A DNA stretch of 64,000 nucleotides from a virus: the IMG/VR virus record IMGVR_UViG_3300028028_000001, positions 1-64,000 of that record. One strand, given 5' to 3'. Position numbers and translations under genes: made by a program. Of the stretch, positions 2,551 to 49,746 are shown in pieces. The stretch's first letter is position 1; each line of letters starts with the position of its first letter. The notes beneath the pieces were generated by a model. The model searched no databases. It had not been told where the DNA came from and worked only from the letters and a program-made list of their open reading frames with translations.

Positions 2551-2823
2551 CTAATAGAGTTCGGGGTAATCGGCTCGGTTGTAGTGCCCAGTCTCGCGGT
2601 TTCGCTCGCTGACAGTCTGGGCTACCCACCCGGCGGCGGTCTGATCGATCATCGCTCGGATGGCGATGGCGGAGTTCAGGTAGACCTGTCGGCTGGTTCC
2701 GTTCTGGCCCTGGTAAGTGACGACGATCTCTTTTCCGGCCAACGACTCGCGCACGGCGGCGTCCGTGGCTGCACGGTCTTTGCGGCTCTGGTCAATCAGT
2801 TCCTGGTCTTGAGTTCGGCTCAT
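2551..2823 (-). CDS. hypothetical protein (90 aa)
   Basis: ORF 2551..2871 with the start moved to the internal ATG (MSRTQDQELID) at 2823. Confidence 0.5.
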   Translation of the reverse strand: MSRTQDQELIDQSRKDRAATDAAVRESLAGKEIVVTYQGQNGTSRQVYLNSAIAIRAMIDQTAAGWVAQTVSERNRETGHYNRADYPELY

Positions 2824-3012
2824 CTTCGTTTCTCCTGTTCGGGTGACGCCCCAGAATAGAGCAACTTCCATGCCGCCACTAAAACCGGCGTTCTATGGTA
2901 GCCGGTACGACTTGAATGTCGTGGTCAATCCTGGCATGGTTCGTGCCTATTCCGTTCTATGTCGGTTTTCGACCACGACTTACAGATCAGGTCGTTGCGC
3001 TGGATGTCACGG

Positions 3013-3939
3013 TTAGAAGATCCGATCGATGATTTCGAGCACATAGAGATAGTTCGCCTTGAACTCCGGGTCCTTCTCTTTCTTGGCTCGTAGCGCCTTG
3101 ATCAGGATGTCGAAGTACGCCGAGTCAACCCCGGTCAGTTGATCTTCCAGAACATCGATGTCCGACAAGTCGAGTTCCGATATCTGGAAGGCCATTTTCA
3201 TGAACTGCCCGGCGTTGATCGAGAAGCCGCGCGCGATGAACTTGCGGGTCCGGATGACAGAGCAGATCGGGTACTTGCTTCCGACGTAGACGAGTTCCTT
3301 GGCCAGCAGGGCCTCAAGCGCCTTCGGGGGGAGGATGAGTTCACCGGTCTTCGATTCCCATGCGCAAGTACAGTGAACGAAGTCGTAATTCTTGTGGATC
3401 TCCGCGACTTCCCCGAAGAACCGAAGGACTATCTGAATCTTGCCCGAAAGCGTGATGGCGTTGGAGGACATGAAGATCGGGCGATATCGCGGCTTGCTCT
3501 TGTCCTGCTCTTCGTCGAGAACCTTGGCCACGTCGGCAACGAAGGTCTCGCAGGAAGGATCGTTGATCCCGGTACTCTCAAAGTAATGGTAAGAGGCGGT
3601 CCCCTCTTCGCTGGCGATGCCGGCGGACTGGATACGTACCTTCACGCGGTCGCCCGTCGTGTCCACCTTGATATCGATCGCGCCTCCGGTTTTGTGGGAG
3701 TTGACGGCGTTCGCCTCGTACTTCGCGACGTAGTACCGGGCCACACGAGCACAGGTGTCCTTGTCGGTGAAGTACACATCGAAGTCGTTGGGCGGCTCCC
3801 CAAGGAGCATCGACGCGATGGCCCCGCCGGTCACGAGGCAATGGCTCTTGACGTGGTCCCGAAGGGCCTCGTCTTCGATGGACGAAAGCCAGTCGTCGAT
3901 CTTCTTGCGGAGTACGGTTTTGATGGTCTTGGTTTTCAT
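3013..3939 (-). CDS. Pol-beta-superfamily nucleotidyltransferase-like protein
   Basis: 308-aa ORF. 'LVTGGAIASMLLGEPPNDFDVYF' fits the G[GS]-x(9-13)-DxD signature of minimal nucleotidyltransferases. ATGA-coupled to the upstream nuclease gene. Confidence 0.5.
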   Translation of the reverse strand: MKTKTIKTVLRKKIDDWLSSIEDEALRDHVKSHCLVTGGAIASMLLGEPPNDFDVYFTDKDTCARVARYYVAKYEANAVNSHKTGGAIDIKVDTTGDRVKVRIQSAGIASEEGTASYHYFESTGINDPSCETFVADVAKVLDEEQDKSKPRYRPIFMSSNAITLSGKIQIVLRFFGEVAEIHKNYDFVHCTCAWESKTGELILPPKALEALLAKELVYVGSKYPICSVIRTRKFIARGFSINAGQFMKMAFQISELDLSDIDVLEDQLTGVDSAYFDILIKALRAKKEKDPEFKANYLYVLEIIDRIF

Positions 3940-5195
3940 GAGTTCTCCTGATTGGTTTGAGCAGAAGGATCAAGGTCCGAGTCGATTTCAGCCGATTCAA
4001 CCTCGATCCCGAATTCGCGAGTATGAACGGTATCAAGACACGCGTCCAGAAGGTCCTCTCGGTCCTCTTTCCACGTCGCCTTCTTGCCTCGCCCCTTCCC
4101 AGGAGTCAAGGCAGTAGCCACCGCGCCGACGTTGCCGGAGCCGATCTTGAGCGCTCCGAGAAACCCGAGCCAAGAAGCGTTATCGCCTTCCCAGCGCACC
4201 GCCTCTTCTTCGGATACCCGGTGCCACCGACGGGCGAGCAAAGAGCCAGCGTCCACCTTGGGGCTCTTCTTGGTCTTGACGTGATAGCCGACGCTCCCGC
4301 CCGGCACACGGATAGCCCCGTTGTCGCAAGCCGCCCGGATGGCGGGCTCCAGTGCGGCAGTTTGAGCCTTCAAAATGGCGTAATGGGCCGCCAGCGCTTC
4401 TGGTTGAACACCGGCCCAGCCATGGGTGATCCATAGACAAGCCGCCTCGCACTGGAGAACGTAGGGACAACCCATGCACCGAGGCCCTGGGTTCGCCTGT
4501 CTTGGCTTGATCGATGCCGCCTTGATGGCCGTGGAGAGATCCGCCTTCCATTCTTCCAGAACGGAAAGGCCCGCTTCATCCAAGTCAAGATGCTCCGCGA
4601 AAGTGTGCCCCGTCCGGATCGAGGTGATTTCACGGCGTATCCAGTCCGGCTTCTGCCCGTTCTTCTCCTCGTATTCGGCGATGGCGAGAAGAGCATACCC
4701 GCGCATCTGGAGAGACGAGCACTCTTCCTGATTAGCGGTCCATGCCGACTTCCAGTCTCGGACCACGATCCCGGTGGATTCGGCGGCGTATTCGTCGCCT
4801 TCCGTCTGCTCGGTCCAGGTCAGGTCCAGGATCCCATGGTAGGACGCCTCGGGATATTCGCAGGCCTGCCAATTGGCGTCCGCTTTGAGCCAGACTTCAC
4901 GGCGTCCTTCTGGGATCCCGTGCTTGTCGGCGTAGTCCGTGGCCATTTTCGCGCCTTGGAGAGCGGCTTCTATGGGGATTGGGGGCTCCATCTCGGAATG
5001 GTAGGATCGCCCTTCCGTGGACAGGCGGATCACGAGAGATTCCGTGTCGCACGGATAGGCCTGGAGTACCGCGTGCGCCACGATCCCCGGGCCGAAGATG
5101 TCTCTTGGATAGGGCCTGCGCTCTTCGTAGAGGGTCAGGGCGTGCGGACAGTGACGGGTGAAGTTTCGGAGCGCTGATGAGGAGAGGGCTTTCAT
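3936..5195 (-). CDS. PD-(D/E)XK nuclease, Cas4/RecB-like with Cys cluster
   Basis: 419-aa ORF with an N-terminal Cys (RHCPH). Core 'ILDLTW...GIVVRDWKS...SSLQMRGYA' follows the D...(D/E)xK...QxxxY order. C-terminal 'CMGCPYVLQC' completes a four-Cys pattern typical of Cas4/AddB-type Fe-S nucleases. Confidence 0.7.
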   Translation of the reverse strand: MKALSSSALRNFTRHCPHALTLYEERRPYPRDIFGPGIVAHAVLQAYPCDTESLVIRLSTEGRSYHSEMEPPIPIEAALQGAKMATDYADKHGIPEGRREVWLKADANWQACEYPEASYHGILDLTWTEQTEGDEYAAESTGIVVRDWKSAWTANQEECSSLQMRGYALLAIAEYEEKNGQKPDWIRREITSIRTGHTFAEHLDLDEAGLSVLEEWKADLSTAIKAASIKPRQANPGPRCMGCPYVLQCEAACLWITHGWAGVQPEALAAHYAILKAQTAALEPAIRAACDNGAIRVPGGSVGYHVKTKKSPKVDAGSLLARRWHRVSEEEAVRWEGDNASWLGFLGALKIGSGNVGAVATALTPGKGRGKKATWKEDREDLLDACLDTVHTREFGIEVESAEIDSDLDPSAQTNQENS

Positions 5196-10112: not shown

Positions 10113-10777
10113 CTCTCAATCCTCCTGAATCCGATCGCCCAAACCCACTCAAGAGGCGAGTCGAAGTAGGCCAGGTAATCGGCAGGTTCGGTGAATCCTT
10201 CGGCCAGGAGATCCTTTGCCGAGATGTCCTTGACCCGCTCAAGCCGGATTTCAGTTATTTCCAAAATGGAACGTACTGCTTTGAAAGGCATGTGGATGCT
10301 CGGTTTCCATGGGCGGTAATCTGTAGGATCGGACGTTGCCCGGTAACATATCCCGACATCGCCGACCAGTGCTGGTCTCCACGTCTCCCGGACATAAAGC
10401 CGGTCTCCAACCCCGCCGTAGGGGCAATGAGCCCGATGGACGGTATCGTCCTGGTAGGGAATGTGGAGGTAGCACGCACCGAAGAGGGAAGGCCCGTCCG
10501 GATAGGCCCGCGCCTGCCAGTCTTCCACCGGCTTGGTAAACGGAATCTTCGGTGGCTTGACCGCCCGTCGGGTCTGACTCTTTTCGCCCGTCCAGGTAAG
10601 CAGGGCCATCCGGTCATCCATGAGGATCGGTCGGAGGTCGTAGGAGCCGCCGGGGCAGTCGTCGAAAGCCCAACCGCCGTCGGTTTTCACGTCGCGGGTA
10701 TGTTTCTTTGGCGTCCCGTCGATGTTCGCCGGCACGTCTTTTTCGCAGATCCCGCAGTAGCATTTTTCTCGGGTCAT
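10109..10777 (-). CDS. ASCH/PUA-like domain protein with N-terminal Cys motif
   Basis: 222 aa. 'GEKSQTRRAVKPP', 'GDRLYVRETW', 'WKPSIHMP' and 'LEITEIRLERVKDISAKDLLAEG' match the pattern I recall for phage ASCH-domain proteins. Confidence 0.5.
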   Translation of the reverse strand: MTREKCYCGICEKDVPANIDGTPKKHTRDVKTDGGWAFDDCPGGSYDLRPILMDDRMALLTWTGEKSQTRRAVKPPKIPFTKPVEDWQARAYPDGPSLFGACYLHIPYQDDTVHRAHCPYGGVGDRLYVRETWRPALVGDVGICYRATSDPTDYRPWKPSIHMPFKAVRSILEITEIRLERVKDISAKDLLAEGFTEPADYLAYFDSPLEWVWAIGFRRIER

Positions 10778-11184
10778 TTCGCTACCTCCTCAACAGCCTT
10801 CTTTCTCGTGTCCGCATCGAAAAGGGAGAACCCCACCCTTGCCCACCATCCAATCACGTTCATGAGTTCCACTGCCGGAAGGTCTACCCTTACCCGGGCA
10901 TGTTCGCCCTTTTCCATATGGAAATTACTGCACCGGTAGACAGGCCCGCGTCCGTCAAGGTACAGGTCCAACCCGGTAGCCTCCACGTCGCCGTTCTTGG
11001 ACCGGATGATGAGCGAGGCGGGCTCCTTGTCAGCGGTTTCGACGGTCGCCTTTTCCCGCTTGCCTGCGATGATCGTGGCACACAGGTCCACGCACTCATC
11101 GCAGATATTGACGTTTGGACCGGCAACCATCATGCGAGCGTCTTTGATGGTCTTTCCGCAGAAGGAACAGGAGATGGGTTTCAT
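10774..11184 (-). CDS. ClpX-type C4 zinc-finger (ZBD) domain protein
   Basis: 136 aa. The N-terminus 'CSFCGKTIKDARMMVAGPNVNICDECVDLCATII' is near-identical in pattern to the ClpX N-terminal zinc-binding domain (CSFCGK...IAGP.V.ICDECV.LC..II). There is no AAA+ module. Confidence 0.65.
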   Translation of the reverse strand: MKPISCSFCGKTIKDARMMVAGPNVNICDECVDLCATIIAGKREKATVETADKEPASLIIRSKNGDVEATGLDLYLDGRGPVYRCSNFHMEKGEHARVRVDLPAVELMNVIGWWARVGFSLFDADTRKKAVEEVAK

Positions 11185-15916: not shown

Positions 15917-16875
15917 AGAAACCTCTCTACCGTGAAACGCTCGACAGGGATCGGATGGACCGCACGGGCAATCTGCCCCGCGTACCGCTCACCTGCCTCG
16001 TCTTCGTCGGTCGCGGAGATCACCCGGATCCCCCACGGCCACTTGACATGATGAAACCCGCTAAAACCGCCCGATGTAGCTCCAAATACTGCGATCTCCT
16101 TCTGGTCCCTCAAACTGCTCGCGACAGCCAGGTAATCGGTCAGGCCCTCGCACAAGATCGCCACCTTCGCAGGCGCACCCTTCAACAGCGGACGCCCTTT
16201 CCACGGATCGGCGAAGAACAGGTTCTCCGAGGTGCAATCTTTCGGCCATCGGCACTTCGGGAAACCCTCTTCCTCCGGGCACGCTCGCCCGTGAACGCTC
16301 CGCACCGCGCCCTGGTAGTCCACCGCCGACACGACAAGAGGATAGTGGTCTCCCCATGGCCACCACGTCGGCCAGTGTCGCCCGGCGTACCAACCGGCGG
16401 GGATCCGCGCAGGGTCAAGCCCTCGCCCCATCAGGTACGAAAGCCCCCCAGGCGATCCGCTCCCCACGGGCCGGCACTCACGGATGAAGTCGCGGACCTC
16501 CTCGGCGTCCGGCAAACCCGCGCGAACAGGAGACGGCACGGTCCCCGGCTCGACTCGAATCCCGCCGTTCGACCTCCACCACGCGGCGAGCTCCACAGCG
16601 CGCCCGTTGCAGCCGTTCACTGGGCCCCCTATCACGCGCCAGGCCACAAGGTCCGCCGCGTCCCCAGAAGCCCCACAAGCCCAGCAATGCCATCCCACGC
16701 GCTCGTCCTTGCGGAAGACGTAACTCATGGGCCCGCGCCGATCCTGCTTGCCTCGATGCACCGCCCCGCAAGCAGGGCAAGGACCGAACGAACGGCCTCG
16801 ACCAGACTGCATACCGAGCACGCCCAGGACATCCTCTATCCGGGCAACTCGGGCGGCATCGAGCCATGAGGACAT
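15913..16875 (-). CDS. DNA primase (DnaG-type zinc finger plus Toprim)
   Basis: Internal ATG at 16875 (MSSWLDAARVARIEDVLGVLG). Zinc finger 'CPACGA...HCWACGASGD'. Toprim 'ILCEGLTDYL' and 'ISATDEDEAGE'. ATGA coupling to the VirE-like gene. Confidence 0.75.
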   Translation of the reverse strand: MSSWLDAARVARIEDVLGVLGMQSGRGRSFGPCPACGAVHRGKQDRRGPMSYVFRKDERVGWHCWACGASGDAADLVAWRVIGGPVNGCNGRAVELAAWWRSNGGIRVEPGTVPSPVRAGLPDAEEVRDFIRECRPVGSGSPGGLSYLMGRGLDPARIPAGWYAGRHWPTWWPWGDHYPLVVSAVDYQGAVRSVHGRACPEEEGFPKCRWPKDCTSENLFFADPWKGRPLLKGAPAKVAILCEGLTDYLAVASSLRDQKEIAVFGATSGGFSGFHHVKWPWGIRVISATDEDEAGERYAGQIARAVHPIPVERFTVERFL

Positions 16876-17089
16876 AGTTATGCCCTCTTTGCGATCGGCG
16901 ACATCTACACTCCTTCGAACGGTTCCGATGGATTCCTCCACGGGTCCGGCCCTCTCTCTGCTGACTGGTTGGCCGACCTGCCAGCAGAGTGCGGGGAGTA
17001 GACCCGCAAGAGGTGCCGTTCCGTTGATGGAGGAGTTGCCATCCTGATCAGGGTAGCCGGTTGGTTGAGATTCGTCAAGGTGGGGCAGA

Positions 17090-17300
17090 AAGTCGCAAGG
17101 GGTCCACAAAGTATTGATGGCATTGAAATAGCAATATCGCAGGTTTTTTTCGAAATCAGGCGCTTTAAGGTATCCTGCGAATATGTGGCGTTGTAATAGG
17201 GGAATGGAAAACGTGCGCCCCCCTGGACCCCTGTTTCTATAGTATTCTTCGGAGAATTGCAATATGTTACACTTTTTCTCACATGTAGCGAGGCATCAGG
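17090..17300. promoter_or_regulatory. AT-rich candidate promoter/control region of the leftward early operon
   Basis: GC drops sharply by eye (gtattgatggcattgaaatagcaatatcgcaggtttttttcgaaatc...tatagtattcttcggagaattgcaatatgttacactttttctc), directly upstream of the primase start. A TTGCAA (17257-17262) / TATAGA-like pair lies on the minus strand with suboptimal 15-nt spacing. Confidence 0.3.
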
Positions 17301-17473
17301 GGGGCGTGGGGGGCGCATCATGTCAGAAGGCAGTAAGGAGGCGGGTATCGTTGCGCCCCCCTTGAAAGGGAAGGGGGGCTCATTTGGCGTTGTTGATTCA
17401 TTGAAAGTTCCGGGCTAATGGAGCATATCCATCGTGGACCCCTTGAAAGACCAGCGGAAGCATGTGCGAACCT

Positions 17474-17845
17474 TCATGCGTCATACCCGAGCGCGCGGAG
17501 AGCGGAGCCGATCCGGTTGTACCGGTGCTGGCAAGGTTTGATGCCGAGCCCGGCCAGAACATCCTTGTTGCGGAAAAGCTGCTTATCCCCGACCCAATCT
17601 CGAACGAGCGCGATGAGTTCCGTATCCTTACACGTCTTCGGATCGGCTCGCTTCTTCTTGGTCTCCAGGGCGTGAATCCTGGCCTCCAAGGTATCGATCC
17701 GCTTGTCGGAGTTGAAGGAGCCCGTGCGCGCGATGGAGGGGAGGACTCGGTCATCCGAGAAAGTTACACCCTCCCCGTTGACAGATCCTCCCGAACGTGT
17801 AACAAGTACAGCATGATGATTCCAGTCAACCAGCCCCGTCGCCAT
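17474..17845 (-). CDS. hypothetical protein (123 aa)
   Basis: ORF 17474..17905 with the start moved to the internal ATG (MATGLVDWNHH) at 17845. Stand-alone gene inside the control region. Confidence 0.5.
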   Translation of the reverse strand: MATGLVDWNHHAVLVTRSGGSVNGEGVTFSDDRVLPSIARTGSFNSDKRIDTLEARIHALETKKKRADPKTCKDTELIALVRDWVGDKQLFRNKDVLAGLGIKPCQHRYNRIGSALRALGYDA

Positions 17846-17911
17846 GCCCGCTCCCCGGCGGGGCTTGCCGTTGTGGACCGCGCCAGACCCTTGAATGGCC
17901 GCCACAGAACC

Positions 17912-18185
17912 CCGTGGGCGCGTTGCCTATCCACGGGGAAGGATAGAGCAACGGGAGCCCGATTCCTCTTCGTGCGAGGGGATAGGGTCGCCAGCCAGGA
18001 GCGAGGGGTTCCGCCTTGCGGATTGCCGAATCCTGGCGCCCTTTCGCCGTGCGTCGTTCAACCCCGTATACGGTTTCTGCCGGAGTCGGGGAAGGAAAGG
18101 ACACCCAGGATCGGCCGCCAACCGTGTGCACGCGGCGCGGCCAAGCTCCAACGGAAACGGTGGTTCGAATCCACCCCCACGGCTC
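17912..18185 (+). ncRNA. candidate structured RNA ending in a tRNA-like T-arm/acceptor module
   Basis: Perfect T-arm GGTGG-TTCGAAT-CCACC (18159-18175), followed by CCCACGG (18176-18182), which is complementary to CCGTGGG at 17912-17918. A 12-bp hairpin spans 17921-17953. GGATT-GCCG-AATCC lies at 18020-18033, and CCCCG...CGGGG at 18062-18091. No convincing coding frame exists on either strand. Confidence 0.35.
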
Positions 18186-18234
18186 ATTTCCCCGTCGTCG
18201 CATTCCGCGATGACATGACACAAGAGGAGTAGAC

Positions 18235-18528
18235 ATGAAGTCAATCACCATCGACGGCGTGGAATACGCGCCGGTCGTCCCCAACGGAAAGCGCGCCATC
18301 GTCGTCGTCGATCGCGGGTGGATCTTCGCGGGTGATGTCACCGAGGCGAACGGCCGGATCATCCTGTCCCGCGCGGTCTGGGTCTTCAAATGGACGGGCG
18401 GCTGTGGCTTTTCGGCGATCTTTGAAGACGCCAAGAAGGCCGACGTACGCAAGATGCCGACGGTTGTTGACATCCCGGCGAAGTCGGAAATCTACCGCGT
18501 TCCGGTGTCCGACAACTGGGGGCTGTAA
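18235..18528 (+). CDS. hypothetical protein (97 aa)
   Basis: AGGAG Shine-Dalgarno sequence upstream (caagaggagtagacATG). First plus-strand gene. Its stop overlaps the next start (TAATG). Confidence 0.6.
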   Translation: MKSITIDGVEYAPVVPNGKRAIVVVDRGWIFAGDVTEANGRIILSRAVWVFKWTGGCGFSAIFEDAKKADVRKMPTVVDIPAKSEIYRVPVSDNWGL

Positions 18529-18869
18529 TGCTGGGCGAGACCCTTCCTCCGTTCGTTTTGGTCGGCGACGGCTACGGCAACGGCGACGGCGACGGCTACG
18601 GCAACGGCGACGGCAACGGCTACGGCTACGGCAACGGCGACGGCTACGGCTACGGCAACGGCTACGGCAACGGCAACGGCTACGGCAACGGCTACGGCAA
18701 CGGCGACGGCGACGGCTACGGCTACGGCAACGGCGACGGCTACGGCTACGGCAACGGCGACGGCGACGGCTACGGCAACGGCGACGGCGACGGCTACGGC
18801 AACGGCGACGGCTACGGCGACGGCTACGGCGACGGCTACGGCTACGGCACGGTTCAAAGCACACCATGA
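18528..18869 (+). CDS. Gly-[Tyr/Asn/Asp] dipeptide-repeat protein (113 aa)
   Basis: The ATG is translationally coupled (TAATG) to the upstream ORF. Sequence is MLGETLPPFVLV, then 47 G-[Y/N/D] dipeptides, then G-TVQSTP. The coding frame is not proven; see findings. Confidence 0.5.
   Translation: MLGETLPPFVLVGDGYGNGDGDGYGNGDGNGYGYGNGDGYGYGNGYGNGNGYGNGYGNGDGDGYGYGNGDGYGYGNGDGDGYGNGDGDGYGNGDGYGDGYGDGYGYGTVQSTP
18564..18848 (+). repeat. hexanucleotide tandem repeat (GGC-DAC)x47.5, D = T/A/G
   Basis: Read directly. Every unit is GGCTAC, GGCAAC or GGCGAC. Positions 1-3, 5 and 6 are invariant. Only position 4 varies, and it is never C. Confidence 0.95.
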
Positions 18870-19094
18870 CCCTTCCCCGGCTTCAATGGCCACCGATCCT
18901 CACCCGTTACCAAAGAAGCCGGACCCTCTGTCGTGCAATGGGGATCGTCTCTCCTGGTTCGAGTCCCACCAATGACGAGATCCCCAGCCGGGCAACCGGT
19001 CACCATATCGGCATTAGTGGGCTACCCCGTGGCTCTTTGGGGAAGCAGACTGGCTGAAGAATGCGTAGAGCCAACCCTTTACCCTGGAGATGAG

Positions 19095-20222
19095 ATGATC
19101 ACGATCCACCGCTTCAAGCTCCCAAAGCCCCCTGACAACCTCGATCACTTCTGGGAGGGCCTCGCCTCGCACCAGAAGACCCCGATCGGCCAGCACGAAG
19201 AGACATCCTCGGGCTTCATCGACATGAGCCCGCAGGAGTCTTCGGACCTCGTGAACACGCGCCCCACCGAGGGCTCCCTGCTCTCGTTCCGCTGGTGCTC
19301 CGAGCGCCGCAAGATCGACCCCCAAACCCTCAAGGACGCCTTCCAGGTCTGGCGCAGCCAGAACGACGGAATGCGCCTGACGAAGCGGGTCAAGGAAGAG
19401 ATCCGCGATCGGCTGCTGCCCGACGCCTCACCCAAGCGCAAGGTCCTTCGCTGCTACGTTGACCTCCGCACCAACTACCTCCTGGTCCTGGGCTCCGAAA
19501 ACGACGCCACCACGATCCGGAGCGCCTTCGATCGCGCTACTGGGCTCGCCTGCTATCAGGAGTCCGGCGCCGCTATCCTCCGGCACACCGAGACGAACCC
19601 GGACGTGCTCCGGGACCTCTGTGGCAAGGAGGTGGACCTCACAGACTACCGCGACAACGACATCCGGATCAATACGCGCGAATTCCTCCGCTGGCTCGTC
19701 CGTAGTGGCTCCGAGGTTCTCTTCCCCGTGCGCTCGCTCTCGGTCGAAAGCAACGGCATCACGGTTTCCTGGCGCGGTGACTCGTCCGATCGTGCCGACG
19801 TGGCCAGCGCCCTGCTTGACGACGAGGCCACGGTCAAGGGTGCTCGGTTTGCACTCGCTGACGACCTCTGGACCTTCGCCATGGGCCCGGACCTGGTTCC
19901 GGTTGGTGCGAAGAGCAGCAACTTCAAGGAGCCTTCCGAGGAGATGATCCTCGACTGGTGGGATCTCGTCGGCAAGATCGCGGCCGAGTTCTACGCCTGG
20001 GCGCAGGTCCAGGGTGAATCCCGAGAGCGCCAGGACCGCGAAGCCTGCCAGAAGGTGGTCCGCGCCGCCCTGGTCTGGGTCAGGAAGACGGGTCAGATCA
20101 CACTCTGGGAGGAGGAGGGCACGGAACTCGTGGGCCGATCCGAGCGTGTTATCCCGGTCGAGACCGACTCCGAGCGCAACCGGAGGGCATCGCTGGCGGC
20201 GATGGCCCAGCGTGAACTATGA
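19095..20222 (+). CDS. RdgC-like recombination-associated protein
   Basis: Part of ORF 18933..20222. ATG at 19095 preceded by GGAGA. 'MITIHRFKLPKPPD...SSGFIDM...RLTKRVKEEIRDRLLPDASPKRKVLRCYVDLRTNYLLVLGSENDATTIRSAF' parallels the RdgC N-terminal and middle pattern from memory. Confidence 0.45.
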   Translation: MITIHRFKLPKPPDNLDHFWEGLASHQKTPIGQHEETSSGFIDMSPQESSDLVNTRPTEGSLLSFRWCSERRKIDPQTLKDAFQVWRSQNDGMRLTKRVKEEIRDRLLPDASPKRKVLRCYVDLRTNYLLVLGSENDATTIRSAFDRATGLACYQESGAAILRHTETNPDVLRDLCGKEVDLTDYRDNDIRINTREFLRWLVRSGSEVLFPVRSLSVESNGITVSWRGDSSDRADVASALLDDEATVKGARFALADDLWTFAMGPDLVPVGAKSSNFKEPSEEMILDWWDLVGKIAAEFYAWAQVQGESRERQDREACQKVVRAALVWVRKTGQITLWEEEGTELVGRSERVIPVETDSERNRRASLAAMAQREL

Positions 20223-20860
20223 CCCTCGCAGACCGTCTCAAGGCGCTACTCAACCAGGAAGACCTGAACGCCTACCTTGCCCAGCACCCCCGGCTCTTCG
20301 CTGCTCTGCTCGACGCCGAGGGTTCCGAGGAGGCCAAGTCGCACAAGTTCTGGCTCTCTCGCGTGCATCTCCAGGAGCGCTGGCTTCAGCAGTGCATCGA
20401 CAACGCGGGCGGGTTCGAGGCCTTCACGGTCTGGGCCCATACCGCAGTCAAGGCGGACTTCATACCCTACACGATGGAGCCCGGTGACGCCCTGCCTCCG
20501 CTTGACCACGGGCTCATCTTCAAGATCACGGATCCGGAGTTCGCCTATCCCGGGCATGTCCAGGTCACCCAGATCGTAACCGAGGCCTTGGGCCTGTCCT
20601 GGTTCGTGGCGCTCCGGTTTCGCATGATGGGCAGCCTTGACCCTACGATCATGGACGGCGGTGGGCTCCAAACGGCGCGTGAGGCCATCCGGGCGATCGG
20701 AAAGCAGATCGGGCGCATCATCTTCAACGAGGAGCACGAGGGCCGGATCTACATGGAGGTGCCGCGCGTCGTCGTCGGGGGCGAGGCTCCGAACATCGGG
20801 CCCAATCCCGAGCACGTTGAAACCCCGGTCTGCTGGTGGTTCGCTCGTGCCGTTACCTGA
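20219..20860 (+). CDS. hypothetical protein (213 aa)
   Basis: ORF track; ATGA coupling to the RdgC-like gene. Confidence 0.6.
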   Translation: MTLADRLKALLNQEDLNAYLAQHPRLFAALLDAEGSEEAKSHKFWLSRVHLQERWLQQCIDNAGGFEAFTVWAHTAVKADFIPYTMEPGDALPPLDHGLIFKITDPEFAYPGHVQVTQIVTEALGLSWFVALRFRMMGSLDPTIMDGGGLQTAREAIRAIGKQIGRIIFNEEHEGRIYMEVPRVVVGGEAPNIGPNPEHVETPVCWWFARAVT

Positions 20861-21053
20861 TCCGCCGATCCCGAGCCAGCGGATCCCCGACGGTATCCGC
20901 ATCTCGGACGAAGAAGTCACGTTCCAGGGGCGGCGCGTCGGAGTGATCAGGTCGCTGCCTCTTGGGTACGAGGTTGAACGCCTCGACGGAGAGAAGCGGG
21001 CTTCCATGTCGCGGTTTGCTGCTCTTTGGTGGTTGACGGTGGAGAAAGCATGA
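20847..21053 (+). CDS. hypothetical protein (68 aa, GTG start)
   Basis: In-frame GTG within ORF 20637..21053. The C-terminal part is coding-like, and the stop is coupled to the next ATG. Confidence 0.3.
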   Translation: MPLPDPPIPSQRIPDGIRISDEEVTFQGRRVGVIRSLPLGYEVERLDGEKRASMSRFAALWWLTVEKA

Positions 21054-21247
21054 AGGCCACAGTGGTTCATTCATCAAAGAGTGTGGTAGCCGTCTCATCT
21101 GGTCCCGTGTCAGAAGACATTTTCATCGGTGAAGGTGAATCCCTACAAGAAGCGATCAACAAGTACAGCGCCAGCCACACACCAGACGCGACCGTCCTAA
21201 TCACCAAAGCCTCCCATCGAAAGCGTCGGAATAAAAATGCAAGATGA
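21050..21247 (+). CDS. hypothetical protein (65 aa)
   Basis: Internal ATG (MKATVVHSS) with an ATGA overlap; lower-GC segment. Confidence 0.4.
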   Translation: MKATVVHSSKSVVAVSSGPVSEDIFIGEGESLQEAINKYSASHTPDATVLITKASHRKRRNKNAR

Positions 21248-21443
21248 AGCCCTATTTCTGCTGTGCATGTTGTGGAAACCGTTTCACGGAACGGCGTTGC
21301 AAGGCCAAGAAGCCCTAAACGGACGGCGCGGGGTATTCTCGGATGAGCACCCCGGTCTGCAAAGCATGGATTGGGTAGCAGGTCACGGCATATACGACGA
21401 CGCCTTGGACTACGGCGAGAGTTTCAACATGGAGCCCCCATGA
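21237..21443 (+). CDS. hypothetical protein (68 aa)
   Basis: ORF track; its stop forms an ATGA overlap with the next gene. Confidence 0.4.
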   Translation: MQDEALFLLCMLWKPFHGTALQGQEALNGRRGVFSDEHPGLQSMDWVAGHGIYDDALDYGESFNMEPP

Positions 21444-21667
21444 AAGCCAAGTACGCCGGTAAATGCACCTGCTCGGCCATCGTGTCAGTAGGCTTCGAGA
21501 TTCGCATGGCGCAAGACGACGAGGGCCACTGGCGGATCACGTCCTGTCCGGCCTGTTGCGATTCCTTGTCCCGAGGATGCGCCGATACAGGCGCGGGCAT
21601 GAAAGACCCTCAGTCGAATCTCCAGAAGCGAATTGAACGCCAACGCCGCAGACTCGCCAAAAGGTAG
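21440..21667 (+). CDS. small Cys-rich protein (75 aa)
   Basis: Internal ATG (MKAKYAGKCTCS...SCPACCDS) of ORF 21371..21667. Confidence 0.5.
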   Translation: MKAKYAGKCTCSAIVSVGFEIRMAQDDEGHWRITSCPACCDSLSRGCADTGAGMKDPQSNLQKRIERQRRRLAKR

Positions 21668-21688
21668 CATTTCCGCTATACTGCCCCC

Positions 21689-22435
21689 ATGCCTCTCCCT
21701 TCGCTGAAAACCGCCGAAGTCGTAGCCCGATGGTACGGGCTCCTCGGGCTCGTTCTTGCGGGCGTGGATCCGATAGTTGCGCGCGGGGTGATGGAGATTC
21801 CAGACCGCGAGTTTGCGACTGTGCGATCGTCAGAGCATCCACTTTATAAGGAGCTTTCCGAGAGGTTCGAGGATGCGGAGGCGAACGCACGCCCGTCTAC
21901 GTCGCCCCTTTCAGTGATGGCCTCGCGGGCATGTAGCGGCAACCCCTATGCCGTCCGATGGCTTCTGCTATGGCTCGATGCCGGTGGATGGCTGAGCACG
22001 CCCACGCTCGACCAGCGTATCGCGCAGGTCCAGAGTCTTTATCAGGGCGCGACCGTTCGGGACTCCTTGGCAATCGACGAGCATTTGGGGCGGCTACTAG
22101 AAGAGAAGCGCCTTAAGGAAACCTCAGTCTCCCGTTCGGTGGAGGAGATGACTCGGGACTCCCTGGCAGGCCTGGACAAGGTTCTTGCAAGTGGTGAGAA
22201 GGGGGAGAAGAGGAAAGCGGCCCAGGTGATCCTCGCGCACGCGATCAACCTCGCCAAGCAAGAGAAGATCGCGGAAATCGTTATGCAGGCGATCCTCCCC
22301 TCGATACGGCGCTATTCGGAAGAACTGGTTAGGTTGGCAGAGAGGAGAATACCGGCAGAGGAGATAGCGCAATGGAGAGAGGAAGCGGAGGAACAACTTC
22401 GACAATTGCTGACTTCGGTCGGGAACGTCGAATGA
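21689..22435 (+). CDS. hypothetical protein (248 aa); possible small terminase by position
   Basis: ORF track; helical and charged C-terminal half; lies two genes upstream of the large terminase. Confidence 0.55.
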   Translation: MPLPSLKTAEVVARWYGLLGLVLAGVDPIVARGVMEIPDREFATVRSSEHPLYKELSERFEDAEANARPSTSPLSVMASRACSGNPYAVRWLLLWLDAGGWLSTPTLDQRIAQVQSLYQGATVRDSLAIDEHLGRLLEEKRLKETSVSRSVEEMTRDSLAGLDKVLASGEKGEKRKAAQVILAHAINLAKQEKIAEIVMQAILPSIRRYSEELVRLAERRIPAEEIAQWREEAEEQLRQLLTSVGNVE

Positions 22436-35819: not shown

Positions 35820-37537
35820 ACGACTCCGAAGCCACGAATCTCCTGCGCGCCTTGGCCCCCGTCGGTGGGTCTCCTGGTGGGTTCGACCCCAAGAAGCGCC
35901 GCGTGCTCGTCATGCGGCTTCATCGGTATCTGGTGGAGGATGGCGGCTACATCCCAGCGTGGCTCAAGAACGAGGCGGCCGAGATGCGGAAGGGCGTGAT
36001 CCTTTACGTCGAGTTGCACAAGGCCGCTCAACTTGGGCTCTTCGGTGGTCAGGGTCGGGAGTTTCGCCCGGAGGTGCCGAAGCCGCATGGTGGTGGTAAG
36101 CCTCGTGGGCCGCAGCAGACCGGGATGACCTCGGGCGGGCTCTTCGGCACGGTCTGGGTCAAGGACCATGATCGGGTGGTGAATGGGCACGTCGAGCACG
36201 TTGACGGTCATGAGAGGAAGGTGGTGGGGAATGTCCACGCGCCCACGTTGACAGGAAAGGAGGAAGGTGGTAGGGTCGAGAGTGAACCTTCTCCGAAAGA
36301 GGAAAGCATGACCCGGCACCCTGACGCTCCGGAAGGATTCGAACCGGTTGACATGTCCATTCATGGAGCCCATAAGGCACCATCGAACGAAAAGGGGCAA
36401 CAGGGCTCTTTCAACTACTGGTATCCGACGCTGGAATCGGCTCGGGCAGGCCAGAAGCACCATGAAGAGCAGCAACGAGTAAAGGGGGATATGAAGCGGG
36501 CGCGGGAACATGAGAAGATCGCTCGCGGATCGGCAAAGTTCATTGAGGCTGAAACTCAACGAAGAGCAAAACTCGCGGCGGCAGAGATTCGGCGCACCGC
36601 TGTTCCTTTTGTTCACCCGAGTATCTATGAATATCGGGACTACATCAGAGAGCAGGGTGGTTTCGTGGAAGATGGTGGGTGGAAGGTGCCAGCCGCAGCT
36701 CACGCCGCCATTACGGAGCACATCGAGGAGCGGAATCGGAAATTGGCCATCAAGCGCCAAACGAAGCCATCAGTAACCCCACCGGTTCCGGCCGCACTGA
36801 AATACATACCCATACAGCACTCGAACACCTACGACTATCGGGAAGACATCAAGAAAGCCGGTGGTCGGTGGGACAATAACCAGCGGGTCTGGATGGTCCC
36901 GGAAAACAGGCATGCCGAACTAATCGCCAAGATGACGCCTGCGCCTGCGCCCCCTCCCGCAGCTCCTTTGCCGACGATCGCACCAGGAGAAAAGGAATAC
37001 ACCAGATTTGAGAATGGATCGCGTCGTATGAAGCCCGCTCATCCGTTGGCTGTCGGAGACGTGGTGTTTCGAGGGGATGGCGCAAACCGAACTTACCAGA
37101 CGGTCACGAAAGTAAGGCCTTCGCTCTTCCGTTCCGAAAACGATCAGGAGGACTTTGGAGAAACCGGAAGAGGTGCAGGTTGGTATCATCCGTATACCGT
37201 TCGACCTGCTACTGAGGAGGAATCGGCCAACCTCCGCGGCAAGCACGCAGAAGCAGACGCAAAGGTCAAGGCTGCGACTGCCGCAAAAATGGCGCTACAG
37301 TCAGCCATCCAGACGGCGGAATATCCGAAGAAGGCTGAACCATCAGGAGAGAGCATCAAGATTGGTCAAAATGAAACAATTCAGGTTGAGCCAGACCTTC
37401 AACACGCGTGGCACATCAAGTATAACGGTCGTGATGGCGACAACTGGGCCTACAACAACCTGGGCGGCCACTCGATCGCGCATCGGTTCCCAATGACTCC
37501 TGAACTATCAGGACACATCGAAGCGCTGAAAGTCTAA
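35816..37537 (+). CDS. multidomain protein with QLGLF module and two tandem 'GGxWD...WxVP' (DUF5710-like) domains
   Basis: 573 aa. 'YVELHKAAQLGLFGG', 'WVKDHDRVVNGHVEHVDGHERKV'. Repeats 'YEYRDYIREQGGFVEDGGWKVP' and 'YDYREDIKKAGGRWDNNQRVWMVP'. Confidence 0.6.
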   Translation: MNDSEATNLLRALAPVGGSPGGFDPKKRRVLVMRLHRYLVEDGGYIPAWLKNEAAEMRKGVILYVELHKAAQLGLFGGQGREFRPEVPKPHGGGKPRGPQQTGMTSGGLFGTVWVKDHDRVVNGHVEHVDGHERKVVGNVHAPTLTGKEEGGRVESEPSPKEESMTRHPDAPEGFEPVDMSIHGAHKAPSNEKGQQGSFNYWYPTLESARAGQKHHEEQQRVKGDMKRAREHEKIARGSAKFIEAETQRRAKLAAAEIRRTAVPFVHPSIYEYRDYIREQGGFVEDGGWKVPAAAHAAITEHIEERNRKLAIKRQTKPSVTPPVPAALKYIPIQHSNTYDYREDIKKAGGRWDNNQRVWMVPENRHAELIAKMTPAPAPPPAAPLPTIAPGEKEYTRFENGSRRMKPAHPLAVGDVVFRGDGANRTYQTVTKVRPSLFRSENDQEDFGETGRGAGWYHPYTVRPATEEESANLRGKHAEADAKVKAATAAKMALQSAIQTAEYPKKAEPSGESIKIGQNETIQVEPDLQHAWHIKYNGRDGDNWAYNNLGGHSIAHRFPMTPELSGHIEALKV

Positions 37538-37539
37538 TC

Positions 37540-37818
37540 GTGCTGCTTCTTTTCGTTCTCCTCCTCTCCTGCGCCCCAGAACCGCCAGAAGTCTGCAATA
37601 TGGTCTCCGTGCCCTGGGAGCGCTCGACGCTCAAGGCGATCGAGGTTTACCTCGACTACCTGCCCTGTGAGGCCACGATCGGCTGCGAGTCGCTTAACGG
37701 GACCGTGACGATTTACGACCTGGAGCCCGTTTGCGGAGTCGCCTGCCGGGTATACGGATCCTGCCGCCCGGACGAAACGCCGCTGGAACTTCGATACTCC
37801 GCGTGCGACTGCTCATAG
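37540..37818 (+). CDS. Cys-rich lipoprotein (92 aa)
   Basis: GTG start. 'LLLFVLLLSC' is a lipobox-like signal (L-L-S-C), followed by 7 further Cys. Confidence 0.5.
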   Translation: MLLLFVLLLSCAPEPPEVCNMVSVPWERSTLKAIEVYLDYLPCEATIGCESLNGTVTIYDLEPVCGVACRVYGSCRPDETPLELRYSACDCS

Positions 37819-38625
37819 CAGCGTAGTTTGCTCCCGCTCCTCATCCTGGCCCATTGGCAGACCTATCTGAACGCCAGCGGCCTCGATGCTCTCCAACCTG
37901 CGCGCCGCGATGTCGAGATAAGCCGGCTCCGTCTCGATCCCGATGTACTGGCGCCCAGAGAGTAATGCAGCCTCTCCGATGGCCCCAGAACCTGCGAAAG
38001 GGTCAAGGACCGTGCCGCCATGGGTCACGACGGAAACGAGCCACGCGCAGACCCTTGGGGGCTTTTCGGTGACGTGCTCGCGGTCCCTTGAAGACGCCTC
38101 GGTGACGTAACCGGGCAGGCAGCCGATCCCTGGTCTGTCGGTCGGCATCGGTCCAAGGGTTCCGACGGCGATGAATTCGCCCGGGTTCCAGAACCAGCCC
38201 ATCCGAGGCCTTGACGATCCGGGAGGCTTCAACCACGGGTGGATCCCGCGAAGGATGAACCCGCCCACTTGGAGCGCATCACAGACCGCGCCAACCTGCC
38301 GCCAGTCGGAAAAGACGCATGCCGGACTGCCGGGGAGCATGACCCGAGTCGCACGGGCCGCAATCTCCCCAAGCCAGATCGTGAAGGATCGCTGGTCTCG
38401 GTTGTCGCCTGCGAAGTTCGGAAGGTATTCGGCCTGCGCGGAATCGGAGCTGAGATACTTCTTGCGGGTGTCTAGCGTTCGATCACCACGGAAGGCACCC
38501 CCCGAAGAGTACGGGGGATCCGTGATCAGGGCGTCAACGCGGACGCGTTCGCGTTCGAGATCCGCGAGTACGAACAGGGAGTCGCCGTTGTAGAGTTTCC
38601 AGGTCTTTCCTTGGGCGTGTAGCAT
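37813..38625 (-). CDS. DNA methyltransferase (N6-adenine or N4-cytosine; DPPY before FxGxG)
   Basis: 'DALITDPPYSSG' (motif IV) lies near the N-terminus and 'VLDPFAGSGAIGEAA' (motif I) near the C-terminus. Only minus-strand gene in the right arm. Its stop overlaps the lipoprotein stop (TCATAG). Confidence 0.85.
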   Translation of the reverse strand: MLHAQGKTWKLYNGDSLFVLADLERERVRVDALITDPPYSSGGAFRGDRTLDTRKKYLSSDSAQAEYLPNFAGDNRDQRSFTIWLGEIAARATRVMLPGSPACVFSDWRQVGAVCDALQVGGFILRGIHPWLKPPGSSRPRMGWFWNPGEFIAVGTLGPMPTDRPGIGCLPGYVTEASSRDREHVTEKPPRVCAWLVSVVTHGGTVLDPFAGSGAIGEAALLSGRQYIGIETEPAYLDIAARRLESIEAAGVQIGLPMGQDEEREQTTLL

Positions 38626-49079: not shown

Positions 49080-49746
49080 AAAGAAGCCGCTCGATGACCT
49101 GATCGAGCAGATCGATGCCTCTGTCGTCACCTCGGCAATGCAGCCGCTGGTGGACGGGTTCAAGGACCTTGCGAAAGCGGTCAAGGACTTCACCGACAAG
49201 GAAGACGACGAGAAGGAAGACAAGGAAGAGGAGTCCGACCCCGACATCCACGAGGACAAGGAGGACGAATCCGATCCTGACATCCACGAGGACAAGGAAG
49301 AGCCCCCGCACAAGGCCAAGGAAGACGACTCCGACGCCATGGAAAAGGCGATCGCGCTCGACGTGACCGAGTACCTTGACCGGTGGTCCAGGGATCTCCC
49401 GGCGCTCACCTCCGAAGTCAAGGCGCTCCGCAAGGACAACGCGGACCTTCGGAAGGCGGTGGCCGCTTACGCGGACCATTCGGCAGCGCTCACCAAGGCC
49501 GTGCTCTCCCTCGCCGAAGTCCGCAAGCCTGCCGAGGCCTCCCCGGCTCCCGTGGTCGCCGAAGCCGCTGGAGAGCGCTTCGAGGCTCCGGTCGTTCTGT
49601 CCGTGATTCCCATGGAGAAACTCACCAAGGCCGTGATGTCCGGCGTCATCGACGGTCGCCACTTCGACAACTACACCTCCACCAAGCGTTTCGACCCCAA
49701 CGACATCACGAACGATCGGCTTCACAAAGCCGTCTCCGCTCTCTGA
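49069..49746 (+). CDS. scaffolding protein
   Basis: Acidic and helical. Contains duplicated 'ESDPDIHEDKE'. Located between the protease and capsid genes. Confidence 0.55.
   Translation: MPNEKKPLDDLIEQIDASVVTSAMQPLVDGFKDLAKAVKDFTDKEDDEKEDKEEESDPDIHEDKEDESDPDIHEDKEEPPHKAKEDDSDAMEKAIALDVTEYLDRWSRDLPALTSEVKALRKDNADLRKAVAAYADHSAALTKAVLSLAEVRKPAEASPAPVVAEAAGERFEAPVVLSVIPMEKLTKAVMSGVIDGRHFDNYTSTKRFDPNDITNDRLHKAVSAL

Follow-up and report, generated by a model that had tools for sequence, protein, structure and literature searches.

A two-gene phage cassette that pairs a predicted small beta-barrel with a (Gly-X)n dipeptide-repeat protein encoded by a hexamer array

Proteins with glycine at every second residue are known from silk fibroin (GAGAGS/GAGAGY), in which the alternate glycines of a beta-strand all lie on one face, and viruses provide a precedent in EBNA1 of Epstein-Barr virus, which contains a Gly-Ala repeat. 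Phase separation of FUS is driven by Tyr-Arg cation-pi contacts (PMC5927716), and synthetic GYGYGYG peptides form amyloid-like fibrils (PMC8163036). The stretch of viral DNA analyzed here (the window) comprises 64,000 nucleotides, positions 1 to 64,000 of the IMG/VR record IMGVR_UViG_3300028028_000001. It contains a gene for a protein of 113 amino acids (aa) whose body is a perfect hexamer array coding for alternating Gly and Tyr, Asn or Asp. This repeat gene takes second place in a two-gene cassette, behind a gene for a protein of about 95 aa predicted to be a small beta-barrel. The cassette is present in hundreds of otherwise unrelated phages.

A regular-expression search of both window strands detected a single unbroken GGC-N-AC run at 18564-18845 (+) with a length of 282 nt (47.0 units) and no second array of this type on either strand. 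The run consists of 19 GGCTAC, 15 GGCGAC and 13 GGCAAC units and contains no GGCCAC, which agrees with the original prediction of 47 units (19 Tyr, 13 Asn and 15 Asp) in which position 4 is never C. From unit 1 to unit 47 the order is DYNDDYNDNYYNDYYNYNNYNYNDDYYNDYYNDDYNDDYNDYDYDYY. Tandem Repeats Finder reported a period of 6 with 48.5 copies (score 377) and a period-24 super-repeat (score 422). A chance origin of a perfect 282-nt hexamer array is impossible. The open reading frame (ORF) that holds the array (18528-18869, +) starts with an ATG that overlaps, as TAATG, the TAA of the gene at 18235-18528, and this overlap implies translational coupling of both genes. Five of the six frames are open through the array, including a minus-strand (Ala-Val)n ORF with a GTG start (18492-18893); the overlap, the open frames and the GTG at 18893 had all been described correctly from the sequence beforehand. 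An exact-sequence look-up recorded neither the 113-aa product nor the minus-strand (Ala-Val)n product, and the 47-unit ORF is hence missing from public gene calls. The features of the cassette are as follows.

18224-18229 (+): putative Shine-Dalgarno-like GAGGAG, 5 nt 5' of the partner-gene ATG, read from the sequence
18235-18528 (+): partner gene, cassette gene 1, for a predicted small all-beta protein of 97 aa (the 'A1' family; homologues, AlphaFold2 and Foldseek)
18526-18530 (+): TAATG stop/start overlap, present in the sequence and in line with the overlaps of relatives
18528-18869 (+): repeat gene, 113 aa, MLGETLPPFVLVG-(G-[Y/N/D])47-GTVQSTP, its frame conserved in 64 distinct relatives
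18564-18845 (+): hexamer array, 47 x GGC-[T/A/G]AC (regular expression, Tandem Repeats Finder)
18564-18611 (+): units 1-8 (DYNDDYND), copy 1 of a 48-bp exact internal repeat (assembly comparison)
18762-18809 (+): units 34-41 (DYNDDYND), copy 2 of the 48-bp internal repeat (assembly comparison)
18846-18869 (+): C-terminal tail GTVQSTP and stop, which opens like the family tail G-T-V-x-S and lacks its Arg-rich end

The reading frame was assessed in 80 IMG/VR loci with a homologue of the 97-aa gene, kept from 317 matching stretches and comprising 64 distinct repeat sequences. All 80 loci carry a (Gly-X)n ORF in the Gly-X frame adjoining this homologue, nearly always directly downstream of it. The repeat ORF starts 0-15 nt from the upstream stop, with overlaps of the type ATGA, GTGA or TAATG. 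Similarly, 13 of the 14 loci that match most of the 97-aa protein in a collection holding one genome per bacterial or archaeal species also have a (G-X)n ORF. Just before the array, an N-terminal F-R-P-[VI]-G motif is conserved across the 64 distinct relatives; the window protein reads F-V-L-V-G, which fits at the F, V and G positions and differs in the R-P pair. A C-terminal G-T-x-S-P-x-R-R-R-R tail follows the array in most relatives, and 58 of the 64 have at least three Arg or Lys residues there. The window tail, GTVQSTP, has none and lies outside this basic pattern. From one locus to another the alternative frames yield different repeats (MAMA, VTAT, AAAT and others), and their ends are not conserved. 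The plus-strand Gly-[Y/N/D] frame favoured in the original prediction is thus borne out by an identical frame in 80 of 80 loci and by conserved motifs at both termini, and relatives that lack the array or carry it out of frame, which that prediction had allowed for, were not found among these loci: the array was present and in frame.

The variable base of the window array (T 19, A 13, G 15, C 0) gives the same picture. Read in the two frames in which it would be silent, the array contains GCC in 0 of 47 Ala codons and GTG in 0 of 47 Val codons, as compared with genome-wide shares of 37% and 33%, respectively. Chi-square tests against genome synonymous usage yielded p values of 3e-11 and 1e-22, which are overstated because the units of an array are not independent. 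The base does not behave like a synonymous third position in either the Ala-Thr or the Ala-Val frame. Across the family, the X residues are Tyr (937), Asp (419), Asn (332), Ser (259), His (49), Phe (43) and Cys (22), all of them single-base neighbours of TAC. This set is strongly biased to Tyr and small polar residues, and His is found about 20 times less often than Tyr even though a single transition turns TAC into CAC, which argues for selection acting on the protein. The relatives also show that variation confined to position 4, as seen in the window, is no rule of the family, since they carry His (CAC), Ser (TCC or AGC), Phe and Cys, and some of their Gly codons are GGT or GGA. Altogether, we are highly confident that the array forms the body of a translated (Gly-X)n gene and that the cassette is real, translated and conserved.

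The repeat protein of the window contains 49 Gly, 19 Tyr, 15 Asp and 13 Asn (43%, 17%, 13% and 12%, respectively) and not a single basic residue, with a pI of 4.05 and a charge of about -16. It has 19 [G/S]Y[G/S], 11 Y-G-N and 2 Y-G-D motifs. Single-sequence AlphaFold2 returned a model of pLDDT 37 without secondary structure. Neither cassette protein was matched in PHROGs, and PDB sequence searches with the repeat protein, the A1 profile and the DUF6948 profile gave low-complexity or chance matches only and no relative with a solved structure. Two profile matches were dismissed as compositional: Pfam TrAA12 (35.3 bits) covers profile positions 385-434 only and matches all Gly-X proteins tested, and an NCBIfam 'serine-rich protein' model reached 23 bits against a cut-off of 650. 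A diversity-generating retroelement was rejected, since the precomputed Pfam calls over the contig include no reverse transcriptase, the window has a single array, and the A at position 5 is invariant in 47 of 47 units while position 4 varies. RTX/beta-roll repeats (GGXGXDXUX) have a period of 9 instead of 2, and GG.G.D is absent from the protein; collagen and polyglycine-II have Gly at every third residue, not every second.

The A1 partner has more than 1,000 homologues, all unnamed and without a Pfam domain, which fall into 252 clusters at 50% identity. AlphaFold2 with 42 homologues predicted an all-beta protein (pLDDT 81.5) in which an N-terminal helix is absent. The top Foldseek matches of this model in the PDB are all Sm/LSm proteins, at weak values (E 0.02-0.1, TM ~0.5). 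In BFVD it matched an uncultured-phage homologue, gp37 of Eggerthella phage PMBT5 and several DUF6948 proteins, the latter with E values of 1.7e-3 to 1.6e-2 and TM scores of 0.53-0.67. Two sequence patterns of A1 and DUF6948 can be aligned, VVVVDRGWIFAGDV..GR..L.RAVWVFRW and VIVRCRDAGVHAGIL..GR..L..SRRLWYWK. The DUF6948 profile (PF22253) left the window partner unmatched and gave an E value of 0.054 for 1 of the 42 family members. The partner is a predicted small beta-barrel, weakly Sm-like and weakly DUF6948-like.

DUF6948 itself occurs in front of such repeats, either as a stand-alone gene followed by an overlapping (G-X)n gene or fused to the array (locus L098, E 3e-23). In two loci (L213 and L214) arrays of 53 and 85 aa follow the same DUF6948 gene (P0435) among the same called neighbour genes, and three DUF6948-linked contigs end inside the array gene. 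The recurrence of a barrel with a Gly-X array, whether split or fused, points to an old and recurrent pairing. One DUF6948-plus-array lineage (L213-L215) has a Radical_SAM/SPASM gene at 644-1585, 1.4 kb 5' of the pair, which probably belongs to a DNA-modification set rather than acting as a peptide maturase. Within the A1 family, one locus (L011, 3312-4300) has paralogous barrels on either side of the array, and three (L032, L065 and L074) have two array genes each. A barrel-array fusion suspected in longer A1 homologues was rejected; their extra length consists of N-terminal extensions or of tandem barrel duplications within one polypeptide, as in P0241, P0242 and P0351.

For 32 window genes around the cassette, the 80 loci contain no homologue, which indicates that the cassette is mobile, and the largest cluster of neighbour genes covers 16 of the 80. 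The cassette lies in the early region, among genes for replication, recombination and nucleotide metabolism. In the window it is placed between a divergent primase/helicase block and an RdgC-like gene; neighbours in related loci, as judged from sequence, are ThyX-like thymidylate synthase, ribonucleotide-reductase-like, MazG-like, YqaJ-like and ERF-like genes. Among cultured phages (50,697 records) the cassette was found in Eggerthella phage PMBT5 only (NC_048022, L086). Its gp37 shares 39% identity with the window barrel, and gp38 (2788-3114, 108 aa) is a (G-[YNDC])n protein that opens MANYGYGNGYGNG... and bears the RefSeq label 'adsorption protein', probably an artefact of low-complexity similarity. 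Both genes are flanked by those for SSB and a DnaD-like initiator, in the replication module. Neither gp37 nor gp38 is taken up in the PMBT5 paper, whose trypsin-based virion proteomics would be blind to gp38, which has no internal Lys or Arg. A megablast search of window positions 16000-22000 against cultured phages had zero matches. The one-genome-per-species collection holds 16 loci only, nearly all on contigs of metagenome-assembled genomes (MAGs); the sole isolate is a Novosphingobium strain with a degenerate array. The searched literature (repeat motifs, DUF6948/DUF7666, Gly/Tyr-rich phage proteins) contains no description of the family. The earlier statement that no described phage protein of this type is known must be qualified, as gp38 is already annotated.

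The array is also modular. Eight perfect GGCNAC units, used as a query against IMG/VR, retrieved at least 120 DNA stretches, with 129 arrays among the matches listed, of which 46 follow an A1 gene and the others sit in different small proteins. A (G-[YDNS])n module is joined to DUF7666, TIGR02996, DUF1496 and several unnamed small phage domains. In one alignment (A2, P0129 and relatives, one of them from a Lachnospiraceae MAG), DUF7666 is followed by (G-[YDN])n and a conserved hydrophobic C-terminal N-I-Q-R-I-L-L-F. Further architectures have an N-terminal domain with G-A-C-x-D-G-V, or an N-terminal array followed by a C-terminal domain with FAHGET...DWHHRLTGSC. Pairs of loci with 100% identical 600-nt flanks have arrays that differ by one unit, by a Tyr/Ser change, or in length (17 versus 81 residues). 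Entire hexamers are thus gained and lost, and single bases change in the X codon, so that length varies and the frame is kept, in agreement with the original prediction that slippage changes length and never the frame.

Codon usage in the arrays is uniform. GGC accounts for 92% of 2,087 array Gly codons, and about 90% of the X codons end in C. In the adjacent gene, GGC/NAC use is 45-63% over all loci; in loci below 55% GC it is 86-92% in arrays versus 40-45% in the adjacent gene. PMBT5 gp38 uses GGC for 44 of 46 Gly codons in a locus of 50% GC, and the DUF6948-linked arrays are alike. Arrays with mostly GGA or GGT for Gly occur as well (L006, L025 and L075). Repeat purity correlates with GGC use (Spearman rho 0.33, p 0.008), so that concerted evolution contributes, yet it fails to account for the same codons winning in such distant lineages. 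Candidate causes are selection for codons read by tRNAs with G or queuosine at position 34 and selection for unstructured mRNA; the array RNA is less structured than 100 of 100 dinucleotide-preserving shuffles (z = +4.77). The uniformity hints at an added constraint at the level of RNA, DNA or tRNA.

The number of units depends on the assembly. A MEGAHIT contig of the same phage in ENA (ERZ27247322), with 100% identical flanks over 8 kb on each side, has 14 units, which correspond to window units 1-8 joined to units 42-47. Since units 1-8 and units 34-41 of the window form a 48-bp exact internal repeat, the length difference of 198 bp amounts to a deletion or an assembly collapse between the copies. 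In the Logan k=31 assembly of SRR8449812, one contig ends at about 18592 and the next starts at about 18813 (window positions). The array edges and the unit type are reproducible; number and order of the interior units rest on a single assembly. The 64 distinct relatives have a median of 34 units (range 6-51), which makes 47 an ordinary number and 14 an outlier, and the 14-unit form looks like a collapse product. The predicted count of 47 is accordingly exact in the window and assembly-dependent beyond it, and the assembly artefact for which the original prediction had allowed would concern the unit number, not the edges or the unit type. It could be argued that the array, or most of it, was made by the assembler out of a short microsatellite, since one phage gave three outcomes (47 units, 14 units and a contig break), many related contigs stop within arrays, and one has an N run inside the array. 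This is scarcely credible given that three assemblies concur on both edges and on the unit type, that non-periodic interior stretches such as NYNNYNYN consist of k-mers that assemblers never invent, that 47 units are ordinary beside the median of 34, and that collapse between the two 48-bp repeats yields exactly the 14-unit form. Arrays are also break points elsewhere, with contigs stopping inside them (L215-L217 and many of L087-L166), and the 76.8-kb contig JBBAWA010000001.1 (L220/L221) has the cassette at both ends and an N run within the array. As arrays break assemblies, array lengths in short-read metagenomes are likely underestimated.

With respect to function, we tentatively propose, by analogy with FUS and the GYGYGYG peptides, that the repeat protein is a disordered Tyr-sticker protein that self-associates or binds multivalently and works with the barrel. 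A disordered chain with Tyr evenly spaced between Gly and small polar residues would follow a sticker-and-spacer grammar. Through its tyrosines the protein might form a condensate, a gel or an amyloid-like polar zipper, or hold several binding partners at once. It would be produced in a fixed ratio with the barrel, whose docking sites would be the conserved ends, F-R-P-[VI]-G on one side and the basic tail on the other; the barrel could control assembly or use the array as a tail, as the fused DUF6948-array proteins may do. The protein would probably act early in infection, in host takeover or in organising or protecting the DNA metabolism of the phage. Cassette and mechanism together are the best explanation at hand, held at somewhat less than an even chance. 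Several observations weigh against it. A pLDDT of 37 from a single-sequence run merely fails to show a fold. The window copy has no Arg tail and is strongly acidic (about -16), which opposes simple self-association and is unlike most relatives. The number of Asp residues per family member ranges from 1 to 15, so that a mechanism based on charge would not hold throughout. The Sm-like assignment of the partner model is weak, and hhalign of A1 with DUF6948 gave a probability of 0.6%, which is not significant. Finally, a protein-only model does not predict the GGC/NNC uniformity, which extends to lineages with only 39% partner identity and to loci of 44-50% GC.

Other functions account for parts of these data. 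Alternating Tyr and Asp about 7 Å apart could imitate a single-stranded nucleic acid, in which case the protein, assisted by the Sm/OB-like barrel as co-factor, would be a decoy that titrates either a defence sensor or a DNA- or RNA-binding protein of the host. The 15 Asp, 19 Tyr and zero basic residues of the window protein are consistent with such mimicry, as are the constant placement amid replication and recombination genes (SSB, RdgC and primase, with ERF-like and YqaJ-like genes read from sequence) and the closest fold of the partner, a nucleic-acid-binding small barrel, albeit a weak match. Mobile early-region cassettes are also typical for anti-defence genes. Acidity, however, is not conserved, many relatives being Asn/Ser-rich with 1-4 Asp and a basic tail, and known DNA-mimic proteins were not matched in Pfam, PHROGs, NCBIfam or the PDB; we consider a mimic unlikely. 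Selection may also act wholly or partly on RNA or DNA, the peptide being secondary, with the tract serving to bind proteins, to offer translation a platform free of structure, to act as a contingency tract prone to slippage, or to sense tRNA supply, the last for tRNA-Gly(GCC) and for the NAC-reading tRNAs of the queuosine family. The excess of GGC over the adjacent gene, shared by PMBT5 gp38 and the DUF6948-linked arrays, and the low structure of the array RNA fit this view, and the NAY codon box encodes precisely Tyr, Asp, Asn and His. That same set also comprises the first-position neighbours of TAC, however, and codon purity tracks repeat purity as concerted evolution predicts. The conserved non-repeat peptide motifs at both ends in one frame, the coupling of the start codon to the upstream stop everywhere, the amino-acid selection visible in the rarity of His, and the arrays built mostly from GGA or GGT all speak for the protein, and make a primarily nucleic-acid-level role improbable.

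The 11 Y-G-N and 2 Y-G-D motifs of the window protein raise the question of a modified-peptide precursor, for example with triceptide-like cyclophanes on Tyr-Gly-Asn/Asp as in GrrA/OscA1. The DUF7666-array fusion P0129 scores 23.8 bits against TIGR04260, below the cut-off of 31, and the Radical_SAM/SPASM gene lies 1.4 kb upstream in one DUF6948-array lineage. TIGR04260 misses the window protein even with a threshold of E 0.1, the precomputed Pfam calls for the contig include no radical-SAM, YcaO or other maturase family, and no enzyme gene recurs beside the cassette in the 80 loci; on these grounds the precursor was rejected and is very hard to credit. Moreover, the leader would have about 12 residues only, and the genes around the lone radical-SAM neighbour, for a 5-hydroxymethyl-dU kinase, a thymidylate synthase and the TAGT family, resemble a DNA-modification set. 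Gly-rich tracts are known to stall proteases, and a slippery, cis-protective tract comparable to the Gly-Ala repeat of EBNA1 might jam host AAA+ proteases (ClpXP, Lon) and thereby protect phage proteins. Glycine makes up about half of the residues in a dipeptide register, the module is attached to many different small phage domains like a transferable tag, and the phage also encodes a protein with a ClpX zinc-finger domain. The window array is nevertheless a separate polypeptide and not a tag on a cargo, and protease jamming leaves the conserved Tyr without explanation; we regard it as highly improbable. Of the functions listed in the original prediction, a low-complexity, self-associating domain hence fits best, and neither a precursor peptide nor a purely DNA-level element is supported.

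If the proposal of a Tyr-sticker protein is correct, the family would represent a very common, unannotated class of phage proteins with a prion-like sticker-and-spacer grammar in the form of a pure dipeptide repeat. Its scale is indicated by the 252 partner clusters at 50% identity and the at least 120 IMG/VR stretches with perfect arrays of at least 8 units. The cassette would then be a compact two-gene system for infection condensates or amyloid, with barrel alone, array alone and natural fusions as inherent controls, and gp37/gp38 of PMBT5 would serve as its cultured model. A speculative extension, to which we give little weight, is that the array is a general, prion-like 'address tag' of phages that nucleates or targets proteins to a phage membrane-less compartment, or is a sponge for host factors, with the barrel as dedicated nucleator or regulator, and that GGC/NAC coding is selected for fast and accurate translation by tRNA-Gly(GCC) and the queuosine-family tRNAs. 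This would define a widespread, so far unrecognised class of condensate-forming phage proteins. Whatever the function, the arrays break or collapse short-read assemblies and go uncalled or mislabelled ("adsorption protein"), and their codon uniformity across distant lineages is an unusual signal.

The surroundings of the cassette offered further observations. Just 5' of it lies a tRNA-like element (17912-18182, +) with a perfect T-arm, GGTGG-TTCGAAT-CCACC (18159-18175). The adjoining CCCACGG (18176-18182) pairs with CCGTGGG (17912-17918) in the minimum-energy fold (z = -2.72), so that an acceptor-like stem and the T-arm enclose about 240 nt in a tmRNA-like topology. The element was called neither by ARAGORN nor by Rfam. 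It was rejected as a part of the cassette, because the T-arm motif occurs upstream in 3 of 76 other loci and is not conserved. Rfam (gathering threshold for the window, E <= 1 for 17200-19100) and ARAGORN returned nothing credible; a match of isrG to the minus strand of the array was discarded at 13.9 bits against a gathering score of 100. A scan for promoters and terminators over 17200-19300 gave no signal exceeding shuffles. Two other tandem repeats of the window are found at 49219-49302 and 36175-36275; their periods are 36 nt (2.3 copies) and 46 nt (2.2 copies).

The contig entered the databases as a 'Thermoleophilia bacterium' MAG (WC911_01770); the genes that it carries are those of a phage with a genome of about 97 kb. 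Its phage genes encode a VapE-like helicase, a primase, an RdgC-like protein, the large terminase, the portal and SSB. The Thermoleophilia label is probably a binning artefact and is uninformative on the host. Two genes at 3013-3939 (-) and 3936-5195 (-) code for a Gad2-family protein (PF26128) adjoining a weak PD-(D/E)XK nuclease match; the Gad2 family is named after an anti-Gabija protein, and the pair is a possible anti-defence locus. The gene at 10774-11184 (-) encodes a 136-aa protein with a ClpX-type zinc finger (PF06689) in which the ATPase domain is absent, and which may interfere with ClpX adaptors or substrates. In the late region, a 1,900-aa protein (41875-47577, +) has SNF2-related and Helicase_C matches; near it lie an N6/N4 DNA methyltransferase gene (37813-38625, -) and a DUF1643 gene.

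Low-complexity dipeptide-repeat proteins as such are known; the searched literature describes neither this phage family nor its obligatory barrel partner, breadth or codon uniformity. Long dipeptide tracts encoded by in-frame short DNA repeats of variable copy number are shared with the Ser-Asp adhesins of the Sdr/Clf group (ClfA/B, SdrC/D/E) and with the Gly-Ala repeat of EBNA1, and NCBIfam Sdr/Clf models give weak compositional matches to a related array protein (P0233). In contrast to these, the phage protein has no signal peptide, LPXTG anchor or ligand-binding domain, is not part of a larger protein, and combines Gly with Tyr, Asn and Asp instead of Ser/Asp or Ala; there is no homology. 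Unlike in silk, the X residues are bulky or charged and not Ala or Ser, no beta structure is predicted, and the protein is phage-encoded and intracellular. GrrA/OscA1 (TIGR04260; triceptides, PMC11499958) likewise has Gly-rich repeats with aromatic-X-Asn/Asp triplets, but its context is cyanobacterial and the one here phage; the window protein is unmatched by its profile, and no radical-SAM/SPASM maturase was called on the contig or recurs near the cassette. A small bent-strand barrel together with a Gly low-complexity repeat is also seen in Sm/LSm/Hfq proteins with Gly-rich tails, such as the RG tails of SmD1, SmD3 and LSm4 or the GGFGGQ repeats of Acinetobacter Hfq (PMC11617691). In the phage cassette, however, the fold match of the partner is weak and the repeat is a separate, coupled polypeptide, rich in Tyr, Asp and Asn and not in Arg or Phe.

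DUF6948 (PF22253) and DUF7666 (PF24703) are phage domains of about 85-95 aa that are fused to or located directly upstream of (G-[YDNSH])n arrays and find no mention in the searched literature. The window partner resembles DUF6948 in predicted structure and sequence pattern and stays below every Pfam threshold. The prion-like domains, of which FUS is the example used here, differ in that the phage repeat keeps a strict two-residue register with 50% Gly, has no Gln, is often strongly acidic, and belongs to a stand-alone phage protein of about 100 aa beside a dedicated barrel. Both share a composition of Gly, Tyr and small polar residues, an even spacing of Tyr (19 [G/S]Y[G/S] within 113 aa) and predicted disorder, and most relatives further combine, as FUS does, a Tyr tract with an Arg-rich segment (PMC5927716), in repeats akin to the fibril-forming GYGYGYG peptides (PMC8163036).

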